Source of the DNA: Candidatus Microgenomates bacterium
Lineage (GTDB): Bacteria > Patescibacteriota > JACPGU01
Direction: 5' to 3'
Assembly (NCBI GenBank): GCA_016188915.1
Contig: JACPGU010000002.1
Span: 11,388 to 75,387, forward strand
DNA length: 64,000 nt
The notes beneath the pieces were generated by a model, which was not told the DNA's origin, ran no database searches, and saw nothing but the letters and a program-made list of their open reading frames with translations. Below are positions 22,672-46,910 of this stretch, piece after piece. Positions within the stretch are counted from its first letter, which is position 1. Every line of letters begins with the position of its first letter. Made by a program: the position numbers and the translations under genes.

Positions 22672-23220
22672 CTATATTTTTTGCCAAATTGCCACATGGC
22701 TATCACCATAGGTGCGATCTTCAAGCAACCTTAAAATATCTATTTTAGGGATAGCTACTCGACTACTTGATTCTAGCACAAAAACGCCATCTTTGGCTAG
22801 AATATCGGCTACTAATTCTATTTTTTGTAAGTCAAAGTCATAATACGGTGGATCGGCGAAAACAAGATCGTATTTCTGCAGAGACAAAGCATGCTTTGTC
22901 TCTGCCATAAATTTATCATAACTCATACTTCGTACTTCATAATTCGTAAAACCAAAGGTTTCCATGGCCAACTTAACATCTCTTATCGAACCCCTATCTC
23001 TATCGACAAAAGTAACTGTCCCCGCTCCTCTTGAAATCGCTTCTATCCCATACATCCCGCTTCCCGCAAAAAGATCGACAACTTTTATATTTTCAAAATC
23101 CACCATATTTCCCAGGATATTAAAAACCGCCATTCGCACTTTTTCCGAAGTCGTTCTTCTGCCCTTGCGTTCTCGGTAAGAGACTTGCCTACCCTGAAAT
23201 TGTCCGCCTGTAATTTTCAT
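22672..23220 (-). CDS. rsmD: 16S rRNA (guanine966-N2)-methyltransferase RsmD, with an in-frame palindromic insertion
   Basis: VDLFAGSGMYGIEAISRGA...FADPPY; insertion at 22878-22905 encodes ETKHALSLQ. Confidence 0.8.
   Translation of the reverse strand: MKITGGQFQGRQVSYRERKGRRTTSEKVRMAVFNILGNMVDFENIKVVDLFAGSGMYGIEAISRGAGTVTFVDRDRGSIRDVKLAMETFGFTNYEVRSMSYDKFMAETKHALSLQKYDLVFADPPYYDFDLQKIELVADILAKDGVFVLESSSRVAIPKIDILRLLEDRTYGDSHVAIWQKI
22878..22905. repeat. Palindromic element family A (GCAGAGACAAAGCATGCTTTGTCTCTGC), in-frame in rsmD
   Basis: Perfect 28-bp palindrome; related copies at 23838, 24918 and 40110. Confidence 0.75.
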
Positions 23221-23253
23221 CTTATTTTCTTATTTTCTTAATTTCTTATCTCC

Positions 23254-25458
23254 CTATTCCCAATGTTTAATGGTATTTATCTCCTCTATTTTTTCTTTCA
23301 GTTTATCATATTTTTCCAAACCTTCATCAATTATAGTCTGCGCCTCTGCGCGAGCCAATTTAATCAAGGATTGGTCCCAGAGATTGGCAATTTTTAATTG
23401 CGGGAATCCTGACTGCTCCGCGCCCCAAAATTCACCCGGACCACGGTTTTTCAAGTCAAACTCGGCTAGCTCAAATCCTGAATTCGTCCCCGCAAATTTT
23501 TTCAATCTCTCTATCGCTTCGGGATTTCTGCTTTCAGAAAAAACCAAACAATAGGCTTGCCTCTCACCTCGCCCCACTCGTCCGCGAAATTGGTGGAGTT
23601 GCGCCAGCCCAAATCTGTCAGCGTTTTCCACTACCATAATGTTCGCATTGGGTATATCGATCCCCACTTCAATCACGGAAGTGGAAACGAGGATTTGTGT
23701 TTTTTTGTTTTTGAAGTCTTGGAGAATTTTTTCTTTTTCTTCTGACTTTATTCTGCCATGTAAAAAAGCTATCTGAAAATCTGGAAATATTTTTTTTAAT
23801 CTTTCCGCCTCTTCCATCACCGTCCTGCGGTCATCCTGTAGAGACGAAGCATGCTTCGTCTCTACAAAATCCGAATTCTTGTTTTCTTGCTTACTTGTTT
23901 TTCCCGCCTCTATATTCAATCTTATTGTATGGCAGGACCTCGCCAAAGGCGGTGGCTTGTTTTCTCGACTAATCAACGAACATACCACAAACACTTGCCC
24001 TCCCTCCTTCACTTTCTCCGCGATGAATTCGTAGGCCTTCTTCCTCTTCGTCCCATCCACAAATCGCGAAACAATCGGTTTCCTGCCTTTTGGCAATTCG
24101 TCAATAATGGAAATATCCAAGTCGCCATAAAGAGTTAGGGCAAGCGACCTCGGGATAGGTGTCGCCGTCATAGAGAGAAAATGTGGTGTCAAATTTTTAA
24201 GGCCAGATTTTTCTTTCAAAATTTTTCTTTGCTCCACGCCAAAACGATGTTGCTCATCCACGATGACCAGGCCAATTTTTTTGTATTTAACTTTTTTTGA
24301 AAACAGGGCGTGAGTACCGATGATAATATCAGATTGAAGATTGAAGATTTTAGATTTAGGATTTTCAATTTTTCCCTGAATCCTGAATCCTGAATCCTGA
24401 ATCCTACCTGTAATCAAGCTCACGCTTACGCCAAACTCGCTCAATAATTTAGAAATAGTCTCATAATGTTGTTGCGCCAAGATCTCCGTCGGACACATAA
24501 TCACAGACTGATAACCCGCGTCATGCGCCATCAGACAAGTGGTAGCGGCCACCAGCGTCTTGCCACTGCCAACATCTCCCTCTAGCAATCTATTCATTGG
24601 GTTTTCCTTTTCTATATCCTGCAATATCTCCCACAGAGATTTCTTCTGTGAAAGCGTCATTTCAAAGGGCAAAGTGGCGAGAAACTTCTTTGTTAATTCT
24701 AGATTGAATTTGATTTTTGGCGCCTTAAATTTCTCTAGCTCTTTTTTTTGGGACAAAAGTGAAAGCTGAATCAGAAATATCTCGTCGAAACCGAGACGAC
24801 GGCGCGCTTCAACTAACAATTCCCGACTAGAAGGGAAATGGATCTCGCGCAAAGCATCAGCCAGAGGGAGAAAGTCGTTTCTTTTAATAATGTCTAGAGG
24901 CAAGTATTCAGGTATTTGCAGAGACGAAACATGCTCTGTCTTTGTGAAAAACGGGTAGATAATTTTCCTCAAAAATTTTGAATTCAAACCATCTGTTTGA
25001 GAATAAATAGGGATAATCCCTCTGGTATGGATTAAATCTGCTTCTTCTTCCAATTTTTCCACCATTGGATTATTGAATTGCAAACCCCTCCTCCCAAAAC
25101 CAATTTTGCCACTTAAAATTATTTGGTCCCCTATTTTAAGGTTATTGGTAATATATGGCTGATTAAACCAGATAGCGCTGACTGTGCTTTCTCCGTCTGA
25201 CACTGCCATAGTGGTAATACTCATCCGGCGTCTTTTCCAGGCTTTTTTTGTGCCCAAATCCCAGATTTGGCCACGAATCGTCCCACTTTCGCCATTTTTT
25301 AGCTCTTTTATGGTTTTTATATGTGAAAAATCCTCCCACCTGCGAGGAAAATGATAGACTAAATCTTTTATTATCTCCACGCCTAATTTCTTGAATCTTT
25401 CGGTTGTCTTCATCCCTACGCCAGGCAGTTGGAAGATAGGTGTCTCCAGGTTTAGCAT
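23254..25458 (-). CDS. recG: ATP-dependent DNA helicase RecG (contains two palindromic insertions and a heptanucleotide repeat)
   Basis: Wedge/helicase motifs: [28 protein letters not shown]. Confidence 0.9.
23838..23865. repeat. Palindromic element family A (GTAGAGACGAAGCATGCTTCGTCTCTAC), in-frame in recG (ETKHASSLQ)
   Basis: Perfect 28-bp palindrome. Confidence 0.75.
24376..24403. repeat. Heptanucleotide microsatellite (CTGAATC)x4 inside recG coding sequence
   Basis: Encodes [17 protein letters not shown]; unit length not divisible by 3. Confidence 0.8.
24918..24947. repeat. Degenerate family A palindrome (gcagagacgaaacatgctctgtctttgtg), in-frame in recG
   Basis: Shares the AGAGAC..GCATGC core; right arm decayed. 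Confidence 0.5.
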
Positions 25459-26032
25459 ACCTGCATTCTATCACAAAAATTGGTAATGGATTAGCAATAA
25501 TTAATGTTTTTTGATAAAGGGCTTGACAGGGCTATTTTCTTGTGCTAAATTAATATTCGTACCCTAAAAAATAGCAGAGAAAATGGCTTAAGAGAGAGAA
25601 AAATGGGTGTATCTCTACCCCTTTATAGGGACCCCCCGTTAATTCGGGTCATACACCCATCTTTCTCCCTCCAAAGCCCTCCTTTCCTTGATTTTTCAAG
25701 AAAAGGTATCAACTCGCTTGGGGGCTAGACGCCTATTTTACAAAAAATAGGGTCCCGCTCTTTCAAAAGCGGGTTGTCTCGAGGGAACGCTCCAAAAGAG
25801 CCGGAATAGAACCGGAAAACACCTTCTTTTTAGAACTGTTTTCTTTATTCCGCTCTTTGGCGGAAAGATCGCTCCGGCGATGCGTTCTAATCCTTTGCTT
25901 TCAAAAGAGCACTAAAAAGCGGATCTGAGAAAAGTGTAGAGGTCAGACGACCTTATTTAGACCTCCCGGTCTTCACGTTTGGTCTTTTGGCCAAGCTACA
26001 CTCTATCTTTTCCGCTTTTTTTTACAAAATTA

Positions 26033-26061
26033 TTGACTTTTCTATAAATTTATAGTATAAT
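26033..26061 (+). promoter_or_regulatory. Consensus sigma70-type promoter TTGACT-N17-TATAAT
   Basis: ttgacttttctataaatttatagtataat; followed by palindrome TGGCCTAGCCA and SD AAGGGAGG 7 nt before ATG 26121. Confidence 0.65.
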
Positions 26062-26120
26062 GGTAGAAGTGGCCTAGCCACTATTAAAAATTTGTCAAAA
26101 ACCAAAAGGGAGGTTTTTTC

Positions 26121-27044
26121 ATGAAAAAGATGGTTGCGCTGTTTCTTTTGATGGCCACGATGGCTATCACGGATCTGTCCCCCGTTTGGGCAGGTGAACT
26201 GCAGGTGGAGGTACAAAAGCTTTCCACCGCGAGCAATCCACCCCTGCATCGGCTCGCCGTCTTGAAGACGGACATCGAGCAGATGGATCGAATCCTGGCG
26301 GAGACGACCGAAATCAGGGAAAATATTTTTCAGGTCTCCCTGACCGCCGAGAAGGAAAACATCCGACTGACCGGACTCTCCCTCTTGCTTCCGAACCTGG
26401 ACCGGTCGGGAAATTTCCGCGAAGACGGACTGACCAATCTCGAGGAGGCCGAGCTTTATCTCGGCACCGAGCTGGAAGTCTCCGTCGACCGAAAAACCGG
26501 GCTGATTTCGACCAACAAGGTCGGCACCGCTCTGCCCAAGGACAACACCATCTCTTGGGGACTGGATATGCTCGTTCCGGCCGGCAAAACTATCTCTCTG
26601 TTCGTTTCGGGAAAATTTTCCGAAACTTACGCGGAAACAGGGAAAAATTCCTGGCCACCGGCGGTTCAACTTTTGAGCCTGACCGCCGAGAATATCGACG
26701 GCCAACCGGCGGAAGTCAATTTCTCTTCCCGCCTCCCCGATGAAGGAGTGAAGTTGGAGAGAAACCTTCTACCGGCACCGGATAACTCCGGCCGAGCACT
26801 GATTCGGGTGAAAAATTCCGACCCGATCAGCATCGAGCCGGGGATGACATTGGAAATCGGCCATGAAATCATGGTCGTGGCCAAATGCCATACCGCCTGC
26901 GCCGCTCCGGAAACCGAGCTGGAGGTCATTCGCGGAGACAACCGCGAGATGCCCCTTTTCGGAACGATGACATCCCCGCACTACGCGGGCGAGAAGGTCG
27001 AAGTCTACGACCTCCGCCCCCATCCACAAGCTCCCACGATCTAG
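26121..27044 (+). CDS. Secreted protein of unknown function, compositionally foreign (GC ~55%)
   Basis: Signal peptide MKKMVALFLLMATMAITDLSPVWAGE; GC-rich codons (ctg/gcc/ggc) unlike neighbours; strong SD. Confidence 0.6.
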   Translation: MKKMVALFLLMATMAITDLSPVWAGELQVEVQKLSTASNPPLHRLAVLKTDIEQMDRILAETTEIRENIFQVSLTAEKENIRLTGLSLLLPNLDRSGNFREDGLTNLEEAELYLGTELEVSVDRKTGLISTNKVGTALPKDNTISWGLDMLVPAGKTISLFVSGKFSETYAETGKNSWPPAVQLLSLTAENIDGQPAEVNFSSRLPDEGVKLERNLLPAPDNSGRALIRVKNSDPISIEPGMTLEIGHEIMVVAKCHTACAAPETELEVIRGDNREMPLFGTMTSPHYAGEKVEVYDLRPHPQAPTI

Positions 27045-27070
27045 GAGAGCAAAAAAGTTGAGTTGAACTA

Positions 27071-27100
27071 AAAGGCCACCCAAAAGGTGGCCTTTTTCTT
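27071..27100 (+). terminator. Strong rho-independent terminator GGCCACC-caaaa-GGTGGCC-TTTTT
   Basis: Read directly. Confidence 0.75.
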
Positions 27101-27134
27101 ATTTAATTTCTTATTTTCTTAGTTTTTTAATTTC

Positions 27135-27899
27135 TTATTTTTCTAGCTCCAAAACTATCGGGCAATGATCCGACCCTATCACCTCCGGCCGGATATAACT
27201 TTTCTTCACCTTGTCTTTCAACTCACTGGATACCACAAAATAATCTATCCGCCAGCCGACATTGTTGGCCCGGGCATTGCCGAAATGGCTCCACCAAGTA
27301 TAGTGACCACCATCTTTTTCAAACAGACGAAAAGTATCAACATAACCGTGCTCTAAAAGTTTAGTGAACCAGCCTCGTTCTTCGTCGGTAAATCCCTTTT
27401 TTCCACGGTTAGCTTTGAAATTAGTCAGATCGATTTCTTCATGCGCCACATTGAAATCACCACAAATTATAATCGGTTTTTTCTCTCTTAGCTTTTCGCA
27501 GAATTTCAAAAGGTGATCATTGTATTTCATGCGAAATGGCAAGCGAGAGAGTTCGTCATTGGCGTTGGGGAAATAACAATTGAGCAAATAAAAGTCTTCA
27601 AACTCCGTAACGATAGTCCTCCCCTCTAAATCCGCATCGCTCCAACCAATACTATCAAATACCGATTGTGGCTTTTTTTTCGTATAAGTGACAACCCCGC
27701 TGTAACCTTTTTTCACCGAGGAAAAAGACCAGAAAGATTCATAGCCTTCTATATTAGAAAGAAACATGCCGACTTTTTCTGGTGTTACTTTGGTTTCCTG
27801 AAAACAATAGATGTCGGCTTTTTCAGATTTGATAAAATCAAGCAGCCCCGTCTTGACCGAGGAATTGATGCCATTGACATTCCAGCAGATAATTTTCAT
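27135..27899 (-). CDS. xthA: Exodeoxyribonuclease III (AP endonuclease)
   Basis: MKIICWNVNGI...CFQETK...GDFNVAH...SDHCPI. Confidence 0.9.
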   Translation of the reverse strand: MKIICWNVNGINSSVKTGLLDFIKSEKADIYCFQETKVTPEKVGMFLSNIEGYESFWSFSSVKKGYSGVVTYTKKKPQSVFDSIGWSDADLEGRTIVTEFEDFYLLNCYFPNANDELSRLPFRMKYNDHLLKFCEKLREKKPIIICGDFNVAHEEIDLTNFKANRGKKGFTDEERGWFTKLLEHGYVDTFRLFEKDGGHYTWWSHFGNARANNVGWRIDYFVVSSELKDKVKKSYIRPEVIGSDHCPIVLELEK

Positions 27900-27907
27900 G
27901 AGAGAGA

Positions 27908-28306
27908 TTACAAAATGAATGAAGCGATCATCAAAACTACAAAATTAATCGCGGAGAGCACGCACCAAGTGCAAAAGGCGCGGAGAACAAAAGCTTGAAT
28001 ATAAGTAAAGTATGTAGCGAAAAGAAAGCCGATAGTGATAGGAATCTCAAGCCACCAGAAGGGAGTGATACTATAAAAATACAAAATCGCCAAAACAAAA
28101 ATCACCAGATACATCACCAGTCCCGCCACGGAATTAGGGATACCAAAAGTTTTGCTGTATTTACTTTGCTGGACCCTGCGACACCACTCGGGCGGGAAAA
28201 AAATACAAGCCACTTCCGTCCCTTTGATTTTGTGATAGATCAAATAAAGAGTATCGGTAATGCCGATGATGGAAAATATAAAAATGAGAATAAGAGAGGT
28301 AGGCAT
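27908..28306 (-). CDS. Vitamin K epoxide reductase (VKOR)-family membrane protein
   Basis: 4-TM protein with loop cysteines (ACIFFPPEWC) and CTWC active-site CxxC. Confidence 0.6.
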   Translation of the reverse strand: MPTSLILIFIFSIIGITDTLYLIYHKIKGTEVACIFFPPEWCRRVQQSKYSKTFGIPNSVAGLVMYLVIFVLAILYFYSITPFWWLEIPITIGFLFATYFTYIQAFVLRAFCTWCVLSAINFVVLMIASFIL

Positions 28307-28354
28307 ACTGGAAATTTTTGATTGTTATTGTTTGAGGCTTTGATTATTTAGAAT

Positions 28355-31207: not shown

Positions 31208-31249
31208 AGCAATAAATAGTTATTGTTAGCGCTTTTCCAATTCAATCTA

Positions 31250-31278
31250 TTATACTCGCCTGTCAAGATATTCTCAAG
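31250..31278 (-). promoter_or_regulatory. Candidate uvrA promoter (TTGAGA-N17-TATAAT on minus strand)
   Basis: Read from the reverse complement of the divergent intergenic region. Confidence 0.35.
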
Positions 31279-31344
31279 TATTTGTTTTTCTTTTGTTTCA
31301 ACGAAAATAGTGGTATAATATGAAAAATACTATTAATCTTTCCT

Positions 31345-31746: not shown

Positions 31747-31775
31747 GCTAATAATTTTAATTATTTTAATCTCCA

Positions 31776-33822: not shown

Positions 33823-33855
33823 TAAAAAATCCCGCCTTTTTGGCGGGATTTTTAC
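33823..33855. terminator. Bidirectional terminator AATCCCGCC-ttttt-GGCGGGATT between convergent rplT and secA
   Basis: Read directly. Confidence 0.7.
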
Positions 33856-33871: not shown

Positions 33872-36613
33872 CTATCCTCCATGACATTTTTTGTATTTTT
33901 TGCCGCTCCCGCATGGACAGGGATCGTTGCGACCGATATTTTTTTTGTCCATCTTTCCTACTGTATTGTCTTGATTATTTTCTTCTTTTTGATTATTTTG
34001 ATTACTAGAATTTGTTTGTGTTTTGTGATTTGTGTTTTGTGATTTTTCTATTTGTATTTTAAAAAACATTTTAGCAAAGTTACTATCTACCAAAGACTGT
34101 AATTGCTGAAACATATTATATGACCTGTGTTTGTATTCCACTAAAGGATTCTTTTGCCCATAGCCGACCAAGCCTATAGATGTGCGCAAATGGTTCATTT
34201 CTGTCAAATGTTGTACCCAGAACATATCAATTATTCTCAGAAAAAGATATCGCAAAACTCCTTTTGTCTCTTCTCCGAACTCTTCTATTTTTTGAGAAAA
34301 TCTTTGGTCTGTTATCGGTGCCAATTTTTGTTCCATCTCAAAGCCATCTCTTGAGGAATCTAGATCTTTCTGCTCAAGGCCTAATGGCAGTGGAGAAAAA
34401 ATAGCGTTCAATGTTTCTACTATTTCTTTTGTGTTCCAAGATTCTCTATCCCCGATACTATTGCGATGAATGATATCAACCACTTCTTTTTGTATTACAA
34501 ATTTAGCCTTTTCTTGTAATTCGACGGACTGTCCGCTCAAATCATCTTGTCCTTTCAAAATAGCGTCTCTCCTGGAATATATGGCGGCACGCTGACGATT
34601 CATTACATCGTCATACTCCAAAACATGTTTTCTAATATCAAAATTATGCCCTTCTACTTTTTTCTGCGCTGTCTCAATGGCACTGGAAACTATTTTATTT
34701 TCTATTGGCTGGTCGTCTGGGATGCCTAGAGTGTCCATCATTTTTTTGATCCTTTCAGCGCCGAATATTCTCATCAAATCATCTTCCATAGAAATAAAAA
34801 ATTGAGAAAAGCCAGGATCTCCCTGACGGCCAGAACGCCCTCGCAGTTGATTGTCAATCCTTCGAGATTCGTGTCTTTCCGTGCCAAAAACGCACAATCC
34901 TCCCAAGTCCCTTACTTCATTAGCTTTTCCCTCGTCATAGGGATGCCCTCCTAAAATAATATCCACACCTCTTCCCGCCATATTGGTAGCGATAGTGACT
35001 GCTCCTTTTGCTCCCGCTTGAGCGATGATGGTAGCCTCTCTTTCGTGTTGCTTGGCATTCAAAACTTCGTGGGGAACGCCATTTATTTTTAAAAGATGCG
35101 AGAGTAATTCATTTTTTTCTATAGAAATAGTACCTACCAAAACAGGCTGACCAATCTCATTGCGCTTTTTTATTTCCTCTACCAAAGCCTTGAATTTACC
35201 AGTTTCATTTTTGAATATTTTGTCACCCGAATCTTTTCTGACAGTTTTTTTATTGGTGGGAATTTCAACAACATCCAATTTATATATGCTAAAAAATTCT
35301 TCGCTTTCTGTCATCGCCGTCCCAGTCATACCGGCTAGTTTATCGTATAATCTGAAATAATTTTGAAAAGTGATAGTAGCTAATGTCACACTTTCTTTTT
35401 TTATTTCAACGTTTTCTTTAGCTTCAATCGCTTGATGCAACCCTTCAGAATATCTACGCCCAAACATCAATCTGCCCGTAAATTCATCTACGATAATGAT
35501 TTCGCCATCCTTGATGACATAGTCGCGATCTTTTTTGAAAAGAACATGCGCTTTTAGCGCTTGCTCCAAATGATGGGCCAATTCCACACCTTTATCGTAA
35601 AGATTGTCCATCCCCAAAAGATTTTCCATTTTCTTTATTCCCTCATCAGTCAAAGAAACTGCCCGTAATTTTTCATCAACATTATAGTCAGTATTTTCTA
35701 AAAGAGTAGGGATAAGCCCCGCGAATTTGCGATATAAATCTCCAGATTCTTCGGCGGGAGCGGAGATAATCAGAGGCGTTCTTGCTTCATCAACCAAAAT
35801 AGAATCCACTTCGTCAATGACAGCGTAATAAAGATCGCGCTGAACTTTGGCCGCGATATCAGGAGCCATATTATCTCTCAAATAGTCAAAGCCAAATTCA
35901 TTATTAGTGCCATAAGTAATGTCTGCCAAATAGGCTTGCCTGCGACTCGTCTCTTGCAAATTTTGCGATTCTACTTCTATTTGCTGATCGGAAGTTTCTT
36001 CTATTTTTTTTCTTTCTTGATCAAAATTTATCAAAAAAGAATGATCATGCACTATCACCCCCACGCTCAAGCCTAAAAAATCAAAAATCCTACCCATCCA
36101 TTCGGCATCTCTTTTTGCCAAATAATCATTTACTGTCACGACATGCACTCCTCTACCTAATAAAGCGTTCAAATAAATAGGCAAAGTTGAAACAAGAGTT
36201 TTTCCTTCGCCTGTTTTCATCTCGGCGATTTTCCCCTGATGTAGGATTATTCCCCCAATCATCTGAACATCAAAATGCCGCATCAAAAGAACTCTCCTGG
36301 AGGCTTCCCTAACAAGAGCGTAGGCTTCCGGTAGTATTTCTTGTAAGATTTTTTGCTGTTTTTTATATAAATTAGTTTTTTGAGAATCTTTGCTAGAATC
36401 GCCAAATTGTTCTTCCAGCTCATCTTTCCTCTTTTCATCAATCGTCAGATATCGCGATATTCTATCTTTGAATTCTTGCGTTTTCGCGCGCAAAGATTCG
36501 TCCGACAAATCTTGGAGCAATTTTTCATAAGCTCCTATTTTCACCAAAAAAGGATTAATTTTTTTGATCTGTTTTTTACTAGGGTCTCCTAATATTTTTA
36601 TCCAAATCGACAT
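33872..36613 (-). CDS. secA: Preprotein translocase ATPase SecA
   Basis: 913 aa; DEAD motor motifs; C-terminal Zn-binding CPCGSGKKYKKCHG. Confidence 0.95.
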   Translation of the reverse strand: MSIWIKILGDPSKKQIKKINPFLVKIGAYEKLLQDLSDESLRAKTQEFKDRISRYLTIDEKRKDELEEQFGDSSKDSQKTNLYKKQQKILQEILPEAYALVREASRRVLLMRHFDVQMIGGIILHQGKIAEMKTGEGKTLVSTLPIYLNALLGRGVHVVTVNDYLAKRDAEWMGRIFDFLGLSVGVIVHDHSFLINFDQERKKIEETSDQQIEVESQNLQETSRRQAYLADITYGTNNEFGFDYLRDNMAPDIAAKVQRDLYYAVIDEVDSILVDEARTPLIISAPAEESGDLYRKFAGLIPTLLENTDYNVDEKLRAVSLTDEGIKKMENLLGMDNLYDKGVELAHHLEQALKAHVLFKKDRDYVIKDGEIIIVDEFTGRLMFGRRYSEGLHQAIEAKENVEIKKESVTLATITFQNYFRLYDKLAGMTGTAMTESEEFFSIYKLDVVEIPTNKKTVRKDSGDKIFKNETGKFKALVEEIKKRNEIGQPVLVGTISIEKNELLSHLLKINGVPHEVLNAKQHEREATIIAQAGAKGAVTIATNMAGRGVDIILGGHPYDEGKANEVRDLGGLCVFGTERHESRRIDNQLRGRSGRQGDPGFSQFFISMEDDLMRIFGAERIKKMMDTLGIPDDQPIENKIVSSAIETAQKKVEGHNFDIRKHVLEYDDVMNRQRAAIYSRRDAILKGQDDLSGQSVELQEKAKFVIQKEVVDIIHRNSIGDRESWNTKEIVETLNAIFSPLPLGLEQKDLDSSRDGFEMEQKLAPITDQRFSQKIEEFGEETKGVLRYLFLRIIDMFWVQHLTEMNHLRTSIGLVGYGQKNPLVEYKHRSYNMFQQLQSLVDSNFAKMFFKIQIEKSQNTNHKTQTNSSNQNNQKEENNQDNTVGKMDKKNIGRNDPCPCGSGKKYKKCHGG

Positions 36614-36670: not shown

Positions 36671-36696
36671 AAAAAGGGGCTTTTGCCCCTTTTGTT
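36671..36696. terminator. Hairpin terminator GGGGC-tttt-GCCCC with flanking A/T runs
   Basis: Downstream of the hpf stop. Confidence 0.6.
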
Positions 36697-37259: not shown

Positions 37260-37364
37260 AAAATTTTTAATTTTATAATTTTTAATTTTTAAATAATTTT
37301 CTAATTTCTAATGTTTAAAAATTTAGTAAATTATAATTTGTTTATAAAATTACAAAATTAAAAA
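37260..37364. repeat. AT-rich MITE-like intergenic element, copy 3 (full length, terminal inverted repeats)
   Basis: Left arm aaaatttttaattttataatttttaattttt; right arm aaaattacaaaattaaaaattcaaaaatt. Confidence 0.6.
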
Positions 37365-37372
37365 TTCAAAAA

Positions 37373-38617: not shown

Positions 38618-38696
38618 AATCACACCTACTAGTAGAGACGACTTATGCCTGCTCGCCAAAGTGGAGGGAATTGTCTCTGCCTAATTTCTTATTTTC

Positions 38697-40058
38697 TTAA
38701 TTTTTTATTTTCTTATCTTTCTCCCTCATATACGGGAAAAACATTATTTCTCGCAAAGTTTCACTATCGGTGAGAAGTTTGACGAGACGATCCACGCCCA
38801 TGCCCCAACCGGCGGTTGGTGGCATACCGTACTCCAGCGCTTCAATATAATTATTATCTACTTGGTGCGCCTCTTTATCTCCTTTTTTCCTATTTTTGTC
38901 TTGCTCTTCAAATCTAGCCAATTGGTCTGCCGGATCATTAAGCTCGCTATAAGCTTTTACCAATTCCTGGCCCGCGACAATCAGCTGAAAGCTTTGCACT
39001 GTCTTGCCGTCTTTGTTTTTCTTGGCCAGTGGCAAAAGTTCCGTAGGATGATCGATCACAAAAGTCGGCTGTATTAATTTTTTTATTCCGTTTTTGAATG
39101 CTTCGTCAGATTTTTTGCCACCCGTCACTTGCGCAAAAGTTTTCCGAGCAAAAGGTTTTTTGAATATAATTTTTTTCCCGCCTGCCGTAATGTAATTTTT
39201 GCCAAAAACATCTTTGGCCAATCTTATGAGCATTTCTTCTGTCAATTTCATTAAGTTTTCATAGTCAGCGTAAGCCCAGTAAAATTCTAGAATGGTAAAT
39301 TCCGGATTGTGATTGGCGTCCACTCCTTCGTTGCGAAAGGCCTTCCCGATTTCATACACTTTTTCAAAACCACCGATAATCAATCGCTTCAAATAAAGTT
39401 CCGGCGCGATGCGCAAATAAACATCAGCGTCGTAAGCATTGTAGCGAGTCTTGAAGGGCTCCGCGATAGCTCCTCCGGCCATCGGCTGGATGATGGGCGT
39501 ATCTACCTCTAGAAATCCTTTATCTTCAAGAAAGCCAGTCAAAGATTTGATGATTTTGTTTCTGGTAATGAATTTTTCCTTGGCTTCTTTGTTGAAAATA
39601 AGGTCTAGATGGCGACGGCGATAACGTTCTTCGGTATCGGTAATGCCGTGCCATTTGTCGGGCAAGGGGAGGAGAGATTTGGTTAATATCTCAAACTTTT
39701 TCACCAAAATAGTCTTCTCTCCTGCCTTGGTCTTGAAGGTCTCGCCTTCTACGCCAATGAAGTCCCCGAGATCGAAATTTTTGATGAAAAATTTGTATTG
39801 TTCTTTGCCAATTTCCTTTTCGTTGAAAGCGATTTGGATTCTGCCCGCCCCGTCTTGAATGTGAGCGAAACAAATCCGCCCGAGATCGCGAATGAGCATC
39901 AGTCTCCCCGCCACTCGCACCTTCTTGGCGCCCATTTTCAATTTCAAAGCCTCCGCGCTGGTGTGCGTTCGGTCAAATTTCGCCGGATAGGAGTTCACCC
40001 CCATTTTCTTCAAATTTTCCAGCTTTTCTAGGCGAATTTTTTTGAAATCTTGCTCCAT
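38697..40058 (-). CDS. lysS: Lysyl-tRNA synthetase class II (likely start MEQDFKKIRLEKL; ORF track extends to 40148)
   Basis: OB-fold N-domain; class II motifs; C-terminal GMGVDRLVKLL. Confidence 0.9.
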   Translation of the reverse strand: MEQDFKKIRLEKLENLKKMGVNSYPAKFDRTHTSAEALKLKMGAKKVRVAGRLMLIRDLGRICFAHIQDGAGRIQIAFNEKEIGKEQYKFFIKNFDLGDFIGVEGETFKTKAGEKTILVKKFEILTKSLLPLPDKWHGITDTEERYRRRHLDLIFNKEAKEKFITRNKIIKSLTGFLEDKGFLEVDTPIIQPMAGGAIAEPFKTRYNAYDADVYLRIAPELYLKRLIIGGFEKVYEIGKAFRNEGVDANHNPEFTILEFYWAYADYENLMKLTEEMLIRLAKDVFGKNYITAGGKKIIFKKPFARKTFAQVTGGKKSDEAFKNGIKKLIQPTFVIDHPTELLPLAKKNKDGKTVQSFQLIVAGQELVKAYSELNDPADQLARFEEQDKNRKKGDKEAHQVDNNYIEALEYGMPPTAGWGMGVDRLVKLLTDSETLREIMFFPYMREKDKKIKN

Positions 40059-40109
40059 ATCAGTAAGTATAGCATAGAAAAAAAATGAGCGGAAGATAGG
40101 CCTTTCTTC

Positions 40110-40138
40110 GTAGAGACGTTGCAATGCAACGTCTCTAC
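40110..40138. repeat. Palindromic element family A variant (GTAGAGACGTTGCAATGCAACGTCTCTAC) in the lysS leader/5' extension
   Basis: Perfect 29-bp palindrome. Confidence 0.75.
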
Positions 40139-40172
40139 AGATTTCCATTAATTTCGCGCGAAGCGCTAATTT

Positions 40173-41072
40173 CTACAAATTTCGTAGTAATTTGATAGCA
40201 TTCTCGGTCGTCACCCTCTCTACCTCTTCTATCGTAACATCTTTCAGTTCGGCAATCTTGGTAGTGATTAAGGGCAGATATCCGGGCTGGTTTCGCTCCC
40301 CTCGATGGGGTACGGGGGCGAGAAAGGGGCAGTCGGTTTCTAGCAAGATCCGCTCCAGTGGAATTTCTCGCACCACCTGCATTATCCCCTCGTCATAAGT
40401 AACCAATCCCCCAATACCGAAATAAAATCCGAGGTCAACGATTTTCTGAATCCTCTTCTTCCCGCCGGTATAGCAATGGAAAACACCTCTTAATTTCAGA
40501 TTGCAGATTTCAGATTGCAGATTGTCGGAAGAAAAAATCTCCAATACTTCGTCGTAGGTCTTGTTGACATGAAGCAACAAAGGAAGCTTGTATTTGATTG
40601 CCAAATCTATTTGGGAAAGAAAAATTTTCCTTTGTTCGTCATGACTAAGCGGATTGGTATCATTATTCATTCGGTTCCCATTCGTCATATTCGTGTGTAG
40701 ATTCGTGTCATTCGTGTCGCCAGAAAAATCTAACCCGCACTCTCCCACCGCCACTATGTTCTCGCGGTTTTTGCCAATTAGCTCATCCAAACCACTTAAT
40801 TGCTCATCAATACTCAAACTTGAATCTGCCCCCTCGTTATGCGGATGGATGCCGACGGCAGGATATATCACGCCCGGAAATTTCCGTGCCATTTCGAGAT
40901 TTAACCGGCTATCCGTTAGTGATGTCCCCGCGCAAATGATTTTTTTTACATTTTTCTCTATCGCAAAACTAACGATTGATTCATAGTCGTCTTGGTAAAA
41001 AGTTTCATTGATATGCGCATGGGTATCTACAAGCACTATTCTTCTATTTAACAAATAAAGAGATAACAACAC
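40173..41072 (-). CDS. tatD: TatD-family metal-dependent hydrolase with low-complexity insertion
   Basis: VDTHAHI...GECGLDFS...; ~20-aa N/T/D-rich insertion encoded by tandem ~9-nt repeats at 40670-40712; heptamer repeat at 40495-40522. Confidence 0.8.
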   Translation of the reverse strand: MLLSLYLLNRRIVLVDTHAHINETFYQDDYESIVSFAIEKNVKKIICAGTSLTDSRLNLEMARKFPGVIYPAVGIHPHNEGADSSLSIDEQLSGLDELIGKNRENIVAVGECGLDFSGDTNDTNLHTNMTNGNRMNNDTNPLSHDEQRKIFLSQIDLAIKYKLPLLLHVNKTYDEVLEIFSSDNLQSEICNLKLRGVFHCYTGGKKRIQKIVDLGFYFGIGGLVTYDEGIMQVVREIPLERILLETDCPFLAPVPHRGERNQPGYLPLITTKIAELKDVTIEEVERVTTENAIKLLRNL

Positions 41073-41907
41073 AAACCAAGACCACTGCCAGGCCTATAAT
41101 ATTTCTGATGCGAATCTTTTTCTCTTTTAAGAAAAAATGCGAATACATAATAGCAAGAAATGGTGTCGGCATCAGTATCAGCGAAGTATAGACCACGCCA
41201 AAGATTTGGTAGCTGTAATAAAAAGCCATCATGCCCGCTACCCAGAGGAAGCTGACAATCATGAGCTTCCAAAGATCCCGACCTGCCCCTTTTTTCACTA
41301 TCGGCCGGAAAAAAATGAAAAGAACGGCAAATATTAAGGCTGTCCTCACGCCATAGAGAGCCAGTGGAGAATAAGCGGTCAAGAGCTCTTTGGCTAGATT
41401 GTTTTCCAAAGCTTCGAGCAGTACCGCCGCTACTATCGGCACCAGTCCACGATCCAGGACAAAATGCTTTTTCTCTATATGCGTCAGAACCAAAGCCAAA
41501 GCGGCGACAATAGCCAAGATAAAAATAAAGAGATTTCTTTCATCGGGATAGACAATGCCGGCAAAAAGAATGGTCAAGAGTGGCACAAAGGCCATAAATG
41601 GTTCTATCTCTGAAATCCCTTCGCGAATCAATCCGTAATAAAACAAAGCGTTACGAATACTGGCGATGATAGCGACCGCCAAGATAATAATCAGCATCAC
41701 ACTGCTATACGCCACTTGATTGATAGACCACAGATTTGGCCAAAGAAAACCGAAAAGAACCGTTACCAAAAAAACAAACAAAAAACCATAGGCGAGATAC
41801 GCCCGGTAAGATGCTTTGTTGCGAGAAAAAATCTTTTTGTCAAAATTGATTCCCAGAACACTCAAGATCATCGCAGCGATAGGATAAAGAATTGGCATGA
41901 ATAGCAA
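41044..41907 (-). CDS. Integral membrane protein (~9-10 TM; possible DMT/EamA-like transporter)
   Basis: Strongly hydrophobic throughout. Confidence 0.45.
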   Translation of the reverse strand: MLFMPILYPIAAMILSVLGINFDKKIFSRNKASYRAYLAYGFLFVFLVTVLFGFLWPNLWSINQVAYSSVMLIIILAVAIIASIRNALFYYGLIREGISEIEPFMAFVPLLTILFAGIVYPDERNLFIFILAIVAALALVLTHIEKKHFVLDRGLVPIVAAVLLEALENNLAKELLTAYSPLALYGVRTALIFAVLFIFFRPIVKKGAGRDLWKLMIVSFLWVAGMMAFYYSYQIFGVVYTSLILMPTPFLAIMYSHFFLKEKKIRIRNIIGLAVVLVCVVISLFVK

Positions 41908-41969
41908 TGTTAGATTGTCGTATTGTTATATTGTTAAAAAGATAGAAACCTCAAACCGTCTCCGACAAG

Positions 41970-42004
41970 AGGTCGTTCCTCCGGCTCTGCTGGAGGTGCG
42001 ACCT
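41970..42004. repeat. Palindromic element family C, copy 3
   Basis: aggtcgttcctccggctctgctggaggtgcgacct. Confidence 0.7.
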
Positions 42005-42058
42005 CAAATTTCGCGCCATCTTGTAGAAGCCACAGAACTATCGACCGGCCAGCATTTC

Positions 42059-43474
42059 TTATTTCTTCGGAAACAGCGGTTCCGCTTTCACTATCTTTTC
42101 TTGTTTGAAAATACTGAGAATTTTTTCTGATATCTCTGGAATGAAAGGCAATAGCTTACCGGCGATATCTTTGATCGCGACTAGACAAATGCCAATGATT
42201 TCCTCTAATTTTTCTTTATCATCTTTGATCGCCCATGGCTCTTCTTTTGCGATGAAATTGTTACATGCTTCTATCTTCTTTGCGACCACTTCCAGCGCTT
42301 TGTCTAGTCGCAGTTCGGTAAAACATTTGTCGTACTCCTCCGAGATATTTTCCAAATCCTGATATTTTTCAGAAAACGCTATATTATTTTTTTCCGCCAG
42401 ATTCGTCACGCGACTGACAAGATTGCCGAGGCCATTAGCTAATTCATTATAACGAATATCAAATCTTTCCCATGTAAAATCGCCGTCTTCGGTAGTTGGG
42501 ATTTCACGAAGGAGGAAATAACGCAGAGCATCCACGCCGTAGCGACCGAGCGCCTCATCAACATCAATGGTATTGCCCAAGGTTTTACTCATCTTTTTCC
42601 CACCGGAGATAATATGCCCGTGCACCAAAATACCTTTCGATGGTTCGATATCAGCTGACAGCAACATCGCCGGCCAATAAATAGCGTGAAATCTCGTGAT
42701 GTCTTTGCCGATGACATGCAGATCGGCCGGCCAATATTTCCTGAACTTTTCTTCATCGGAAAAAGCTCCGACTCCGGAAAGATAATTCGCGAGCGCGTCA
42801 AACCATACATACATTACTTGCGTCGAATCATCCGGCACCTCTATCCCCCAGGTCAGCTTTTCCTTTGGTCGAGAGACGGAAAAGTCCTCTAGTTCGTTCA
42901 AGATATTCAAAACTTCTTTTTTGCGATGCTCCGGATAGATTTTGAGATTCCCATTCGTAATCAATTCGCGTATTTTGTCTTTGTAGTTCGCGAGCTTGAA
43001 GAACCAATTTTCTTCCTCCACCGCATCGGGCGCTCTATCGTGATCCGGACATTTACCACTAACCAAATCGCTTTCTTTTTTGAAGCTCTCGCATTCGGTG
43101 CAGTAAAGTCCTTGATATTTTTTCAAATACAAATCGCCTTTGCTCTTGCATCTCTCCCATATTTTTTTCACCACTTCAATATGGTCAGGATCGGTCGTGC
43201 GAATGAAACGATCAAAAGAAAGGTTGAATCTTTCTTTCATAGCGACAAATTCCTTCACATTCCGGTCAACCAGCTCTTGCGGAGTGATGCCTTCTTTTTC
43301 CGCCATCTGTTGCATCTTAAAGCCGTGCTCATCAGAACCAGTCAAAAAAAATACTTCCTCGCCTTTTTCGCGATGATAGCGCGCAATGGTATCGGCCACA
43401 ATCTTTTCAAAAACATGCCCGATATGCGGTCGCCCGTTAAGATAGTCAATGGCAGTAGTGATGTAGAATTTCAT
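42059..43474 (-). CDS. metG: Methionyl-tRNA synthetase (short form, no C-terminal tRNA-binding domain)
   Basis: PHIGHVFE (HIGH), KMSKTLGN (KMSKS). Confidence 0.95.
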   Translation of the reverse strand: MKFYITTAIDYLNGRPHIGHVFEKIVADTIARYHREKGEEVFFLTGSDEHGFKMQQMAEKEGITPQELVDRNVKEFVAMKERFNLSFDRFIRTTDPDHIEVVKKIWERCKSKGDLYLKKYQGLYCTECESFKKESDLVSGKCPDHDRAPDAVEEENWFFKLANYKDKIRELITNGNLKIYPEHRKKEVLNILNELEDFSVSRPKEKLTWGIEVPDDSTQVMYVWFDALANYLSGVGAFSDEEKFRKYWPADLHVIGKDITRFHAIYWPAMLLSADIEPSKGILVHGHIISGGKKMSKTLGNTIDVDEALGRYGVDALRYFLLREIPTTEDGDFTWERFDIRYNELANGLGNLVSRVTNLAEKNNIAFSEKYQDLENISEEYDKCFTELRLDKALEVVAKKIEACNNFIAKEEPWAIKDDKEKLEEIIGICLVAIKDIAGKLLPFIPEISEKILSIFKQEKIVKAEPLFPKK

Positions 43475-43545
43475 TTTTGTAACACTTAAAATTTATACAA
43501 AAAAAACAAAAATGCCCCGAGTACCCCCGAGAGGGAAACTATATT

Positions 43546-43725
43546 AGGACTTACGCACTTGACCTTATCATCTAGTCACCGTACACCGTCAGGTAATTTC
43601 TAATGGTTGTTGCGTATTTTGATGTCCGACGTCCCTGCCCGCATTGCTATGCAAAGCGTTGCAGGCGGGTGGGCATCCTTTGACGTCGGACATCTTTGCG
43701 AAAAAGGCCAGATGCGTAAGTCCTA
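43546..43725. repeat. Nested inverted repeats (outer AGGACTTACGCA/TGCGTAAGTCCT; inner GATGTCCGACGTC/GACGTCGGACATC) around a GC-rich core
   Basis: Read directly; ~180-nt structured element between metG and the next gene. Confidence 0.6.
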
Positions 43726-43834
43726 TATATATTAGTATAAATGAAAAAACACTCCAAAACAAGTAGCGACAGAGCAAAAGAAAGAACCCGCGATTTTACT
43801 CGCGGGCTTTTGTTTGTGCTGCCATCCGGAAAAA

Positions 43835-44668
43835 CTAGAATGCGACGACCACGCTTGCTAGCAAACGATTATTCATTGGACTCGCTTCGTAGTCCAAAAT
43901 CGCGAAGCTTTCCTCCTCTTTGAATCGTAGCCCAATAGTATTGATCGTGCTGATATGTTGGGTAAAGTCGGTTTGAAAATGGAGACTAAATCTTTTTCCG
44001 AAAGATTTCTCAGTAAAAACATAGCCACCACTTTTCTTCTTCCCATTGTCGCTTCGCAGATAGAAAGCTCCCCGTGTTATAATTCCGAGATTTGCATCCT
44101 GCCTTTCTCCGCTCACAAGGATTTGCGAATTGTGGTTATCATCGTAGCGGAGAATGGTGCTAACAGACTTCCCGGGGTCTTCCCTTGCCAGTCTCAAACT
44201 GACTTGAGAATATCCGAGATTATCCTGAATTGCTGTTCCGTTCGGAGATCCGCTGACCTCCAGTATGGCCGAAGAATCAGCAGAAAGTTTTTCCGTCACC
44301 TGGAGTCCGTTACCGTAGAATCCGCCAGAAATTCTTGGCCATGAGACTGTGTAAAGATTCTGCGGTGCGGGCAGGCTGTAGCCCTCCAGCAACGGGATCC
44401 GTCCGATGGTGATTCTTCCACGTGACACAAACGCGAGCTTCAACCAGTCTTCACTGTCGAGATTGTATCGATTCGGCTCGATGCGGACGAAGTAATAAGT
44501 GCCCGTTGCTGTCAGTACGAATAAGTTGAACCGCATCTGCGAGATGCTGGTTTTGCCAGAACCTCCAAGATAATCAGTCCGAACAACTCCCGATAAAGTC
44601 GTCTGGGCTGTTGCTCTCATTGTCGTGTTCAAAACGATAAGCACCGATAGAAAAACGATTTTCTTCAT
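43835..44668 (-). CDS. Secreted beta-rich protein, possibly a beta-barrel (C-terminal ...VVVAF); hypothetical
   Basis: Signal peptide MKKIVFLSVLIVLNTTMRATAQ; alternating-residue strands; GC higher than genome average. Confidence 0.4.
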   Translation of the reverse strand: MKKIVFLSVLIVLNTTMRATAQTTLSGVVRTDYLGGSGKTSISQMRFNLFVLTATGTYYFVRIEPNRYNLDSEDWLKLAFVSRGRITIGRIPLLEGYSLPAPQNLYTVSWPRISGGFYGNGLQVTEKLSADSSAILEVSGSPNGTAIQDNLGYSQVSLRLAREDPGKSVSTILRYDDNHNSQILVSGERQDANLGIITRGAFYLRSDNGKKKSGGYVFTEKSFGKRFSLHFQTDFTQHISTINTIGLRFKEEESFAILDYEASPMNNRLLASVVVAF

Positions 44669-44922
44669 GTCTTTCCTTCCCCTCCCTTCATTGACTCCTT
44701 AATCTCTCTTTGAATCTCTTTCTTTTCTTCTTTACTTAATCCCAGCACTTCCTCCATAGTGCTTAATCTTGCATCAGTTCTAACTAGGCGCCCATGGTCG
44801 TCTCCTCCGTAGGTCATAAAATCACTATGGCCATACTTTTGCTTCATTGCTTCGGACATCTCAAAATACTCTCTTAGGAGATTTTTGTATTTTAGAAGTC
44901 CTTCCTCTATCGAGCTAATCAT
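44665..44922 (-). CDS. Small hypothetical protein
   Basis: 85-aa ORF with a 4-nt overlap to the downstream gene; no recognisable motifs. Confidence 0.3.
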   Translation of the reverse strand: MISSIEEGLLKYKNLLREYFEMSEAMKQKYGHSDFMTYGGDDHGRLVRTDARLSTMEEVLGLSKEEKKEIQREIKESMKGGEGKT

Positions 44923-45260
44923 CGGTATCTCTCCCTTCCTAGGATTTACTTCCGTACGGTGATGAAAACAACAGATCCCACCCTATCGTGGACGATAAAG
45001 CTGAATCCAATCTCCTTAAGCACTGCGACAACCTCGCCCTCCTTCATGCTCTATCGCGAAACACAGCATTGGTTTTTATTTCTCAATTTTCCAGGTACGC
45101 TTTGCGTAGCTATGGCCATATTAACACACTTTTCAGAACCTGTCAACTATTTCCGACGACAACTTTCCGTTATCCCAAAAACATACTATTCCCAACCACC
45201 TGTTGTATGAAAATATTTATATTTGTGCTATATTAAAAATAAGAGAAGTCATATCTTTAT

Positions 45261-46007
45261 ATGTCGCAAAAGGATATCTTGTCAAAATTAGAACAGCTCC
45301 ACCTTTCCCCCAATGAGGCCGAGGCCTACCTAGCGCTTCTAGAAATCGGGCAAACATCAGCGGGGGCTATTATCAAAAAAACAAAGCTACACCGTAGCGT
45401 TGTTTATGAGACATTAGAGAAGCTAATAGACAAGAAATTAGTTTTTAAATTGACGAAAAAAAAGATTGCCTATTTTCAGACCACCGCTCCAACCAAGATT
45501 TTGGATCACGCCAAATCACAGCAGAGAATTGCCGAGAAGCTCCTACCGCAATTAAAAAAAATGGCCAAAGAGGGGCTACCCGAAATCAATGTTTATGAAG
45601 GAGTGGAGGCCTATCGTCAATTCTGGATAGACGCCTATAGTAATCTACCGATTGGCACCGTAGATTATGTTGCGGGATCAATAAGCAAAAAGTGGATTGA
45701 CTATATGGGAGGCGATCAAGAAATCATCAATAGGATACGAACCAAAAGAAAGATCAAGTGGGTGGCGATTTGTTTCGAAAAAAATCCCGTAGAGGTAGCG
45801 CTGATGCGATCATGCCCAGCTCTCAATGAGTACCGGCTCATCAAAAAAAATGTAGGAAAATATGGAAATTTCAATATCTTTGGCGATCATACCCTGATAC
45901 TGCATTCTGCTGTTGAGCCAATGATTATTAAGATAAAAAACAAAACATTGGTAAAAGTTTTTGAAAATATCTTTAGTATATTGTGGGAAATTGGGAAAAA
46001 GTTCTAG
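45261..46007 (+). CDS. TrmB-family transcriptional regulator
   Basis: N-terminal wHTH LSPNEAEAYLALLEIGQTSAGAIIKKTKLHRSVVYETLEKLIDKKLV. Confidence 0.55.
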   Translation: MSQKDILSKLEQLHLSPNEAEAYLALLEIGQTSAGAIIKKTKLHRSVVYETLEKLIDKKLVFKLTKKKIAYFQTTAPTKILDHAKSQQRIAEKLLPQLKKMAKEGLPEINVYEGVEAYRQFWIDAYSNLPIGTVDYVAGSISKKWIDYMGGDQEIINRIRTKRKIKWVAICFEKNPVEVALMRSCPALNEYRLIKKNVGKYGNFNIFGDHTLILHSAVEPMIIKIKNKTLVKVFENIFSILWEIGKKF

Positions 46008-46196
46008 AACCCCTTCATTATTTCTAAGTATTACCATTCGCGACCACCTCCCTAATCATAATACGAGAGAGATATTTCGGAAATTGTGGGAGAAGACCAA
46101 AGAATAATATGCATCAAATTTTTAAGGAGAGACCTTAAGAATTTTCCCAAGGTCTCGCCTTGGTAAATTATTCCCGTTTTATAGTTTCTTAATTTC

Positions 46197-46910
46197 TTAC
46201 TTTCTTAATTTCTTATTAATCGCCACCACAAACTCGCCTTTCTGCTTCTTTTTGCCAAAATACTCTGAAAGCTCCGAGAGCGTACCTCTTTTGATCTCTT
46301 CAAATATTTTGGTTAGTTCTCTACCCACCACTGCTTCGCGATCGCCTAGAAAATTCTCTAGCTCTTTCAATGTTTTGACGATGCGATGAGGCGACTCAAA
46401 AAAAATGATTGTTCGATTTTCTTTTTTCAAAGATTGCAACAAGGTTTGTCTGCCTTTTTTCTTGGGCAAAAATCCGAGAAAGAGGAATTGGTCGGTCGGA
46501 AAACCGCAGACAGAAAGGATAGAGGTGAGAGATGAGGCACCTGGGATAGGCACGATGTTAGTCCCGAGGAGAGACCTCGGGGAATCCCCCGAGGTCTCTC
46601 CTCGGGAAGATTCTGTGTAGATTTTCTCGATTAAGCGATTCCCCGGATCGGCTATCCCCGGTGTTCCCGCGTCGGTCACGAGCGCGAGATTTTTCCCATT
46701 TTGCAAAAGCTTTAAGATCTCTTCTTCGCGCGAGTTTTTGGAATGTTCGTGATAGGAGATGAGCGGGATCTTGATATTGTATTTGTCCAAAAGTTTTTTT
46801 GTCACTCTGGTATCTTCCGCCAAAACAAAATCCACGCTTTTCAATACCTCCAAAGCGCGTAGTGTGACATCGCCTAAATTGCCAATGGGAGTGCCTACTA
46901 TATAGAGCAT
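46197..46910 (-). CDS. rsmI: 16S rRNA (cytidine1402-2'-O)-methyltransferase RsmI, with an in-frame GC-rich palindromic insertion
   Basis: MLYIVGTPIGNLGDVTLRALEVL...ESPHR; insertion encodes SSRGETSGDSPRSLLG. Confidence 0.85.
   Translation of the reverse strand: MLYIVGTPIGNLGDVTLRALEVLKSVDFVLAEDTRVTKKLLDKYNIKIPLISYHEHSKNSREEEILKLLQNGKNLALVTDAGTPGIADPGNRLIEKIYTESSRGETSGDSPRSLLGTNIVPIPGASSLTSILSVCGFPTDQFLFLGFLPKKKGRQTLLQSLKKENRTIIFFESPHRIVKTLKELENFLGDREAVVGRELTKIFEEIKRGTLSELSEYFGKKKQKGEFVVAINKKLRK
46563..46606. repeat. 44-bp GC-rich palindrome (CCCGAGGAGAGACCTCGGGG-aatc-CCCGAGGTCTCTCCTCGGG), family B; shares the AGAGAC/GTCTCT core with family A
   Basis: Read directly; inside rsmI. Confidence 0.75.

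Follow-up and report, generated by a model that had tools for sequence, protein, structure and literature searches.

How do short, perfect palindromes come to lie in frame inside conserved genes? The question is raised by a 64-kb stretch of DNA from a Candidatus Microgenomates bacterium, a member of the candidate phyla radiation (CPR). This stretch (positions 11,388 to 75,387 of contig JACPGU010000002.1) is called the window below, and element and gene positions are numbered along its whole length. Five palindromic features in or near the genes rsmD, recG, lysS and rsmI had been described as a single family of in-frame insertions, apparently distinct from those known. All five are present, with coordinates right to within 1 bp. 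Three of them, starting at 22878, 23837 and 40110, and a relic at 24918 are most probably double-foot GTAG repetitive extragenic palindromes (REPs), of the type that belongs to subclass 2.4 of the tyrosine transposases associated with REPs (RAYTs). The palindrome in rsmI lacks the GTAG/CTAC feet of this type and is thus set apart from the others.

A double-foot REP has GT[AG]G at its 5′ end and C[TC]AC at its 3′ end (Quentin et al. 2018, PMC6006769). The window holds, in 64 kb, three intact GTAG-type copies and one relic. In this type a conserved AGAC/GTCT stem base encloses a core of 12–13 nt that varies freely in sequence and remains self-complementary. At recG site 2 (23837–23866) the element is a 30-bp perfect palindrome, TGTAGAGACGAAGCATGCTTCGTCTCTACA, inserted in frame with the layout T-GTAGAGAC-GAAGCATGCTTC-GTCTCTAC-A; inside it lies a 28-bp GTAG...CTAC core, GTAGAGACGAAGCATGCTTCGTCTCTAC, spanning 23838–23865. 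The feet GTAG...CTAC are also found in the lysS-proximal copy (40110–40138), a 29-bp perfect palindrome, GTAGAGACGTTGCAATGCAACGTCTCTAC, which reads GTAGAGAC-GTTGCAATGCAAC-GTCTCTAC. The element in frame in rsmD (22878–22905) is a 28-bp perfect palindrome, GCAGAGACAAAGCATGCTTTGTCTCTGC, with the layout GCAG-AGAC-AAAGCATGCTTT-GTCT-CTGC, which makes it a double-foot REP of an allowed variant with GYAG feet. The fourth copy, at recG site 1 (24918–24947, peptide TEHVSSLQ), is a decayed double-foot REP with two mismatches to the 24-nt pattern; its hairpin is lost (folding z = −0.15 versus shuffled sequence). With respect to the criteria for miniature inverted-repeat transposable elements, the element is a single palindrome without internal segment, and in its flanks T...A, which lengthens the palindrome, is only weakly preferred.

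Folded as DNA, the intact hairpins of the window reach −12.6 to −29.1 kcal/mol (z −5.6 to −8.0), and the double-foot copies among them form stems of 12–13 bp, within the 7–20 nt expected of a REP, that are closed by 3–4-nt loops; their energies lie between −12.6 and −14.8 kcal/mol, with the same range of z. The pattern AGAGAC-N6-26-GTCTCT has four matches in the window versus 0.01 expected from shuffles. The elements had been called GC-rich; this is true of the rsmI hairpin (67% GC) and only modestly so of the 28–30-mers, with 47–50% GC versus ∼40–42% in their surroundings.

The host genes, all on the minus strand, have the identities initially assigned to them, with which Pfam agrees. The rsmD-family methyltransferase gene (22672..23220, PF03602) carries one REP, and recG (23254..25458, RecG wedge and helicase domains) carries one intact and one decayed REP. 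The gene lysS (38697..40058) encodes a class II LysRS and has a REP upstream of its likely start, and rsmI (46197..46910, TP_methylase), the gene for the 16S rRNA C1402 2′-O-methyltransferase, carries a 46-bp hairpin. In the window translations the reading frame stays open through the intragenic inserts, and the peptides that had been read from them are the ones encoded: 10 residues by the rsmD element, 10 residues by recG site 2 in a linker past the first strand of helicase domain 2, and SSRGETSGDSPRSLLG by the rsmI hairpin. A position in surface linkers had also been claimed. For both recG copies this is supported by an AlphaFold2 model of RecG (28 orthologs, mean pLDDT 72.7), since the 46 residues 496–541, which include site 2, have pLDDT below 50 and no secondary structure, while site 1 falls in a loop (residues 172–187). 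Both recG inserts are thus predicted to lie in loops, site 2 in a long disordered linker.

The lysS-proximal copy had been considered an insert or N-terminal extension of the protein, a reading that we abandon. In the long open reading frame (ORF), homology to solved LysRS begins only at residue 34; the true start of lysS is therefore likely to be M31, at position 40058. The palindrome is located upstream of this start, within a 114-nt spacer that begins where the upstream gene ends (40173), and is hence likely extragenic. We also considered this copy as an intrinsic terminator and rejected the idea: a T-run is found ∼27 nt past the hairpin on the coding strand, not directly after the stem, and a consensus scan of 39900–40300 found neither terminator nor promoter around the copy.

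The intragenic palindromes could be inserts or ancestral residues, and orthologs speak for the former, as the original prediction had it. The rsmD insert is missing from 4/4 syntenic orthologs compared (L002, L005, L006 and L007), which have F-[IV]-K-x-C-D-E-[KR]-F-D-L against a 16-residue segment in the window. The insert at recG site 2 is missing from several members of the clade (P0008, P0015 and P0016) as well as from all distant orthologs, and the linker at this site measures 46 aa in the window versus 6 aa in Thermotoga maritima RecG (1GM5). Neither E. coli RsmI (5HW4) nor the majority of CPR orthologs have the rsmI insert (∼15 residues). For rsmD and secA no clean empty-site alignments were obtained, the linkers being unalignable. 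These comparisons support the view that the inserts in rsmD, recG and rsmI are lineage-specific.

To place the elements among those of other organisms, one genome per species was scanned with the pattern GTAGAGAC-N8-16-GTCTCTAC, and at least 120 loci (8 kb each) match. The hosts of the listed loci are mainly Bacteroidota and Cyanobacteria; others are Chloroflexota, Spirochaetales, Omnitrophota, Geobacter and other Desulfuromonadales, Acidobacteriota, Planctomycetota, Zixibacteria and Methylococcales, and Patescibacteria are represented by one contig. Among the instances at the listed loci (n = 132), lengths of 28 nt (89 instances) and 29 nt (37 instances) prevail, 126/132 together. The inner 12–13 nt, which the pattern leaves unconstrained, are fully self-complementary in 84/132 instances and have one mismatch in 28/132, with more than 40 different cores. 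Covariation was assessed on 61 distinct 28-mers with 500 shuffles and a slid-register control. Paired cells make up 95.4% versus 82.3% in shuffles, double-sided changes number 134 versus 40.9 (a level reached by 0/500 shuffles), and slid registers are 25–53% paired. In a metagenome scan, most matches have GT..AC feet, though these were absent from the search pattern. About 21% of the copies from other phyla, as an upper bound, lie in long stop-free stretches. Both open frames of the element are in use across genomes, and the recurrent extra peptides VETxxxxSLQ and RDxxxxVST come from it. The claim of a distinct family has to be dropped, as elements of the same format are catalogued in Table S1 of Quentin et al. 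(2018) and are spread over many phyla. That table contains GTAGAGACGCACGGCCGTGCGTCTCTAC, a 28-nt double-foot REP of subclass 2.4 from Chloroflexus aggregans, as well as a GTAGGGGC-type REP beside a second RAYT in the same genome (PMC6006769).

On two related metagenomic contigs a REP, TGCAGAGACGAAGCATGCTTCGTCTCTAT, is located in the linker of secA just before the C-terminal zinc-finger motif (L131 3849–3877 and L166 704–732). The secA gene of the window (33872–36613) has a low-complexity N/Q/K-rich linker at that place and no REP. The flanks of two other loci, L133 and L138, were considered as related to the rsmD site; the apparent similarity was not borne out by tblastn.

A connection with RAYTs is seen in other genomes. 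We searched with tblastn using E. coli RayT and then the three subclass 2.4 RAYTs found. In 7/120 loci listed, a RAYT-like gene lies next to the palindrome or includes it. At one of these loci, L030, the RAYT gene has REP doublets on either side, the layout of a REPtron. In three loci, L040, L028 and the metagenomic L162, an in-frame palindrome is located inside the RAYT gene itself, where it adds VETRHALSLQ, RRDAMHRVST and another 10-residue peptide, respectively. TnpA_REP subclass 2.4, which corresponds to RAYT group 4 of Bertels, is defined by the motifs NH[FVI]H, WQ and YIxNNP; it is plentiful among Cyanobacteria and Bacteroidetes and occurs here and there in other phyla, and its REPs are uniquely prone to entering tnpA_REP genes without loss of frame (PMC6006769). 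The motifs of the RAYTs found fit the table for this subclass. NCBIfam model NF047646 (REP-associated tyrosine transposase) gave matches with E = 1e-15 and 1e-13, below the equivalog cut-off.

The RAYT gene at L162 (982–1572) has the same core, AAAGCATGCTTT, in its in-frame peptide as the rsmD insert of the window. The gene adjoins one for an RND/AcrB-like pump on a metagenomic contig of 36% GC, and the REP core is therefore also present in a probably non-CPR organism. On the patescibacterial contig JAMCYY010000019.1, from a metagenome-assembled genome (L106), a GTAGAGACGCCCCGTCGGGGCGTCTCTAC REP is fused to a second hairpin, AAAATCCCGC...GCGGGATTTT, downstream of rplL (3863–3925), and at the end of the contig the next ORF is broken by an inverted copy of the same composite (4337–4378). 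The composite, which contains a GTAGAGAC REP, is thus found both upstream of this ORF and interrupting it. The ORF was suspected of being Y1-like; Pfam, NCBIfam, phmmer versus 120 RAYTs and a search of the PDB all ended without significant match.

The most likely mechanism can be modelled on IS200/IS605 and on TnpA_REP of E. coli: the hairpin would form on single-stranded DNA. A transposase would recognise the GTAG foot and the stem, cut and rejoin DNA there, and copies would spread in trans; the candidate enzymes are the HUH-tyrosine transposases of RAYT/TnpA_REP subclass 2.4, whose genes this REP type flanks and enters in frame. A copy in coding sequence would survive only on condition that the length added is a multiple of three (28 + 2 = 30 nt, 10 aa), that the TAG-containing frame is not read and that the landing loop is tolerant. 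With the TAG frame barred, two peptides would be possible, VETxxxxSLQ or RDxxxxVST. Most copies may be intragenic because a gene-dense CPR genome offers tolerated landing places mostly within genes. The inserts are presumably translated.

Several observations weigh against assigning the window copies to RAYT-driven REPs. A tblastn search of the 64-kb window and of syntenic CPR loci (L001–L007, ∼130 kb) gave no RAYT homolog, so that mobilisation by a resident RAYT is something we only infer, by analogy. A regular expression for the RAYT Y motif also gave no match, and the best 120 RAYT relatives, from Bacteroidota, Leptospiraceae and similar groups, include none named as CPR. In this genome the copies may thus be relics that are no longer mobilised, or else a RAYT may be encoded elsewhere on the 311,798-bp contig. 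According to the literature, mobility of REPs driven by RAYTs has not been formally demonstrated even in model organisms (PMC6006769, PMC8266576), and the spread of REPs is still called poorly understood (PMC8266576). The feet of 22878–22905 are GCAG/CTGC, not GTAG/CTAC, and 3/4 GTAG-type copies (in recG and rsmD) are intragenic, at odds with 'extragenic' in the name of the REPs. The centre of the palindrome, the would-be hairpin loop, is symmetric too, which selection on a hairpin alone does not predict; this central symmetry hints at a copying step in which one half serves as template for the other.

Comparison with the closest relative (L001/L169) brings a further aspect. Identity to the window is 76% for RecG by BLAST (78% in the alignment) and 83% for RsmI. 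Both genomes are occupied at the same four sites, namely recG site 1, recG site 2, rsmD and rsmI, and the sequences of the elements at these sites are common to the two in 0/4 cases. At recG site 1 the window has the decayed relic and L001 a perfect GTAGAGACACGACATGTCGTGTCTCTAC; at recG site 2 an AGAC-type single copy stands against a GGGC-type composite. The rsmD site holds a single copy read in the ET...SLQ frame in the window and a split composite read in the RD...VST frame in the relative, and rsmI holds the 46-bp hairpin in the one and an unrelated hairpin with 13-bp arms in the other. Cores taken from different sites of one genome resemble each other (RAAGCATGCTTY at three sites of the window, CACGAYRTCGTG at three sites of L001). 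At recG site 2, precisely 2 nt separate the end of the element from the conserved DDRK codons that follow it in 6/7 genomes, with differing contents.

It is possible, and we put it forward as a tentative idea more likely wrong than right, that occupied sites are inherited in this Microgenomates clade while their contents are overwritten genome by genome, in a foot-targeted exchange in which a Y1 transposase swaps REPs like cassettes. Alternatively, independent insertions into a few permissive loops may have produced the same picture. Overwriting, if true, would be natural evidence for replacement, a step of REP dissemination never observed directly. The turnover of REPs would then steadily supply CPR proteins with linker peptides, and recG would be a preferred sink.

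Palindromic inserts do gather in recG across the clade (the window, L002 10001–12262, L006 8933–11125, L005 3875–6031 and L001 1840–4020). The recG gene of L002 has five GC-rich hairpins versus one in the remaining 20 kb, and the neighbouring uvrA and secA have few or no palindromic inserts. Further families of peptides derived from GC-rich palindromes are carried by RecG orthologs P0002, P0008, P0011 and P0018 and at site 2 of L001 and L007. Peptides of the type VGAGLAP...GRPQGSPLQ derive from elements with GTAGGGGC feet, frequently composites. Others are PPASPKLSFGGRG in rsmD of L006, IYPGQKSGGM, and SPREISRSDNFVSDKIISWG near the C-terminus of RecG; positions 12289–12309 of L006 are also listed among the sites of palindrome-derived peptides.

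The origin of the palindromes may be sought in processes other than transposition of a REP. It could be supposed that they are ancestral linker sequences or chance palindromes, with no insertion at all, and at recG site 1 the net gain over T. maritima RecG is indeed just a few residues. The pattern excess in the window and the ortholog absences at recG site 2, rsmD and rsmI already refute this explanation, and elements of identical format exist in hundreds of unrelated contexts; we regard it as next to impossible. A transposase-free origin, in which quasi-palindromes in permissive linkers are perfected and preserved as such by intrastrand template switching or hairpin-templated repair and every site drifts along a 'palindrome ridge', deserves more attention, though it is improbable. 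It would account well for the symmetry of the central 4 nt in most copies and for the four sites shared with the closest relative, whose sequences are wholly different and still perfect palindromes, and the RAYT not found in CPR loci is what it would expect. It leaves unexplained the GTAGAGAC/GTCTCTAC feet and fixed 28–29-nt length in distant phyla, the tight linkage with RAYT genes and the likeness of cores between the sites of one genome.

Hairpins may also be selected in place, for instance as mRNA structures that serve ribosome pausing at domain boundaries, transcript stability or termination, the peptide being incidental. At orthologous sites it is the ability to form a hairpin and not the sequence that is kept, the inserts lie at domain linkers, and the extragenic copy has genes of the same strand on both sides, the usual setting of transcribed REPs. 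Such selection is nevertheless a distinctly improbable origin: the insert is missing from many orthologs, some of them close, recG is intact although one of its copies has decayed to a non-folding relic, the lysS-proximal copy has no terminator-like T-run, and the same elements occur in unrelated genes and intergenic DNA across phyla. Finally, the elements could be members or close homologs of the Rickettsia palindromic elements (RPEs), with which the original prediction compared them. Classic RPE-1 elements are ∼100–150 bp long, and those in the window measure 28–30 bp, with paired GTAG/CTAC feet and not an unpaired CGTC tag; moreover, the RAYT family is reported as not associated with CGTC repeats. 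The likeness of behaviour (palindromic, in frame, in conserved genes) stands, and RPE-4 and RPE-6 are themselves classed as small CGTC-type REPs (PMC3733652). Foot type and size speak against membership, which we consider extremely unlikely. Double-foot GTAG REPs thus remain our preferred identification of the copies in rsmD, recG and upstream of lysS.

The rsmI hairpin (46562–46607, in frame) cannot be counted with them, and the grouping of the five sites as one family has to be given up. It begins with TCCCGAGG, has no GTAG/CTAC feet and is 46 bp long versus the 28–29-nt format, with perfect arms of 21 nt and a 4-nt loop. Its sole relative found is a sixth, imperfect hairpin (46124–46161; −10 kcal/mol, z −4.6) ∼400 bp off, which is intergenic, just 3′ of the rsmI stop between convergent genes, and has GGAGAGACCT/AGGTCTC in common with it. 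No second copy of the rsmI hairpin was found in 1.25 Mb of DNA examined. The two behave like REPs and form a different palindrome family.

The window has other inverted repeats as well. Symmetric intergenic hairpins with an A-run, a GC stem and a T-run (21364–21389, 27070–27096, 33825–33853 and 36672–36693) resemble bidirectional intrinsic terminators and have no relation to the REP family. Long AT-rich inverted repeats, with arms of 19–46 nt that are 70–95% complementary, are clustered at 13–16.5 kb and also found upstream of recG (13296–13375, 14467–14548, 15479–15594, 16397–16473, 37261–37339 and 25567–25696). An ORF resembling N6-adenine methyltransferases, with an NPPF motif (9011–10513), adjoins a 336-aa ORF (10691–11701), and the region 9011–11701 may be a restriction-modification or defence neighbourhood. 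Within this region lies a hairpin (10645–10673) that we considered as a member of the REP family and rejected, as it proves to be a common terminator-like stem with a T-run behind it.

The results extend double-foot GTAG REPs to the CPR, in whose small gene-dense genomes the elements appear to persist for the most part as inserts of 10 residues, in frame, within housekeeping proteins. In annotation, the elements account for the recurrent VETxxxxSLQ and RDxxxxVST peptides and for spurious N-terminal extensions such as that of lysS. With respect to mechanism, occupied sites whose content changes between close relatives provide a comparative handle on the spread of REPs.

Among known systems, RPEs resemble the elements described here as palindromic in-frame inserts in conserved genes that are tolerated in surface loops; they differ in size, sequence, tag (CGTC for RPE-4 and RPE-6) and host lineage, and the CGTC class has no reported transposase. 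GTAG and CGTC REPs that lie in frame within genes were described in many species by Di Nocera, De Gregorio and Rocco (2013, PMC3733652), who found them concentrated in replication and repair genes (uvrA-D, recBCD, polA) and noted that N-terminal 'intragenic' REPs are often annotation artefacts and really extragenic. There are points of likeness: short palindromes within known genes add residues, a repair gene (here recG) serves as host, recG as a sink recalls the repair-gene bias, and the N-terminal case (here lysS) is extragenic. The REPs of that study have an unpaired tag at one end only, whereas the elements of the window have a tag at both ends, mutually paired; the supplementary text of the study was found to contain no GTAGAGAC and no recG entry. 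REPINs and REPtrons (Bertels and Rainey 2011, PMC3116915; Nunvar et al. 2010, PMC2817692) are likewise non-autonomous hairpins with genome-specific sequence types, whose spread is attributed to a domesticated Y1 transposase present in single copy, and the REPtron layout is the one seen in L030. REPINs are REP doublets with a spacer, while the elements here are single, fully symmetric 28–29-mers; such 28–29-mers could be collapsed doublets, as suggested by Quentin et al. (PMC6006769).

The double-foot REPs of Quentin et al. (2018) have in common with the elements of the window the feet, the length of 28–29 nt, the 12–13-bp stem, the AGAC (or GGGC) stem base and the in-frame entry into coding genes, and are found in Cyanobacteria, Bacteroidetes and scattered phyla. 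Element class, format and in-frame behaviour were already known from this study and from that of Di Nocera et al. (2013), and the kind of element is not new. The differences from the double-foot REPs of Quentin et al. are that one copy here has GCAG/CTGC feet, that no cognate tnpA_REP was found in the 64 kb, that most copies are in housekeeping genes and do not flank or enter a transposase gene, and that the host belongs to the CPR (Microgenomates), a group unsampled in that study and for which we found no paper on REPs. New here are the CPR host, the mostly intragenic location and the sites shared between close relatives with differing element sequences.

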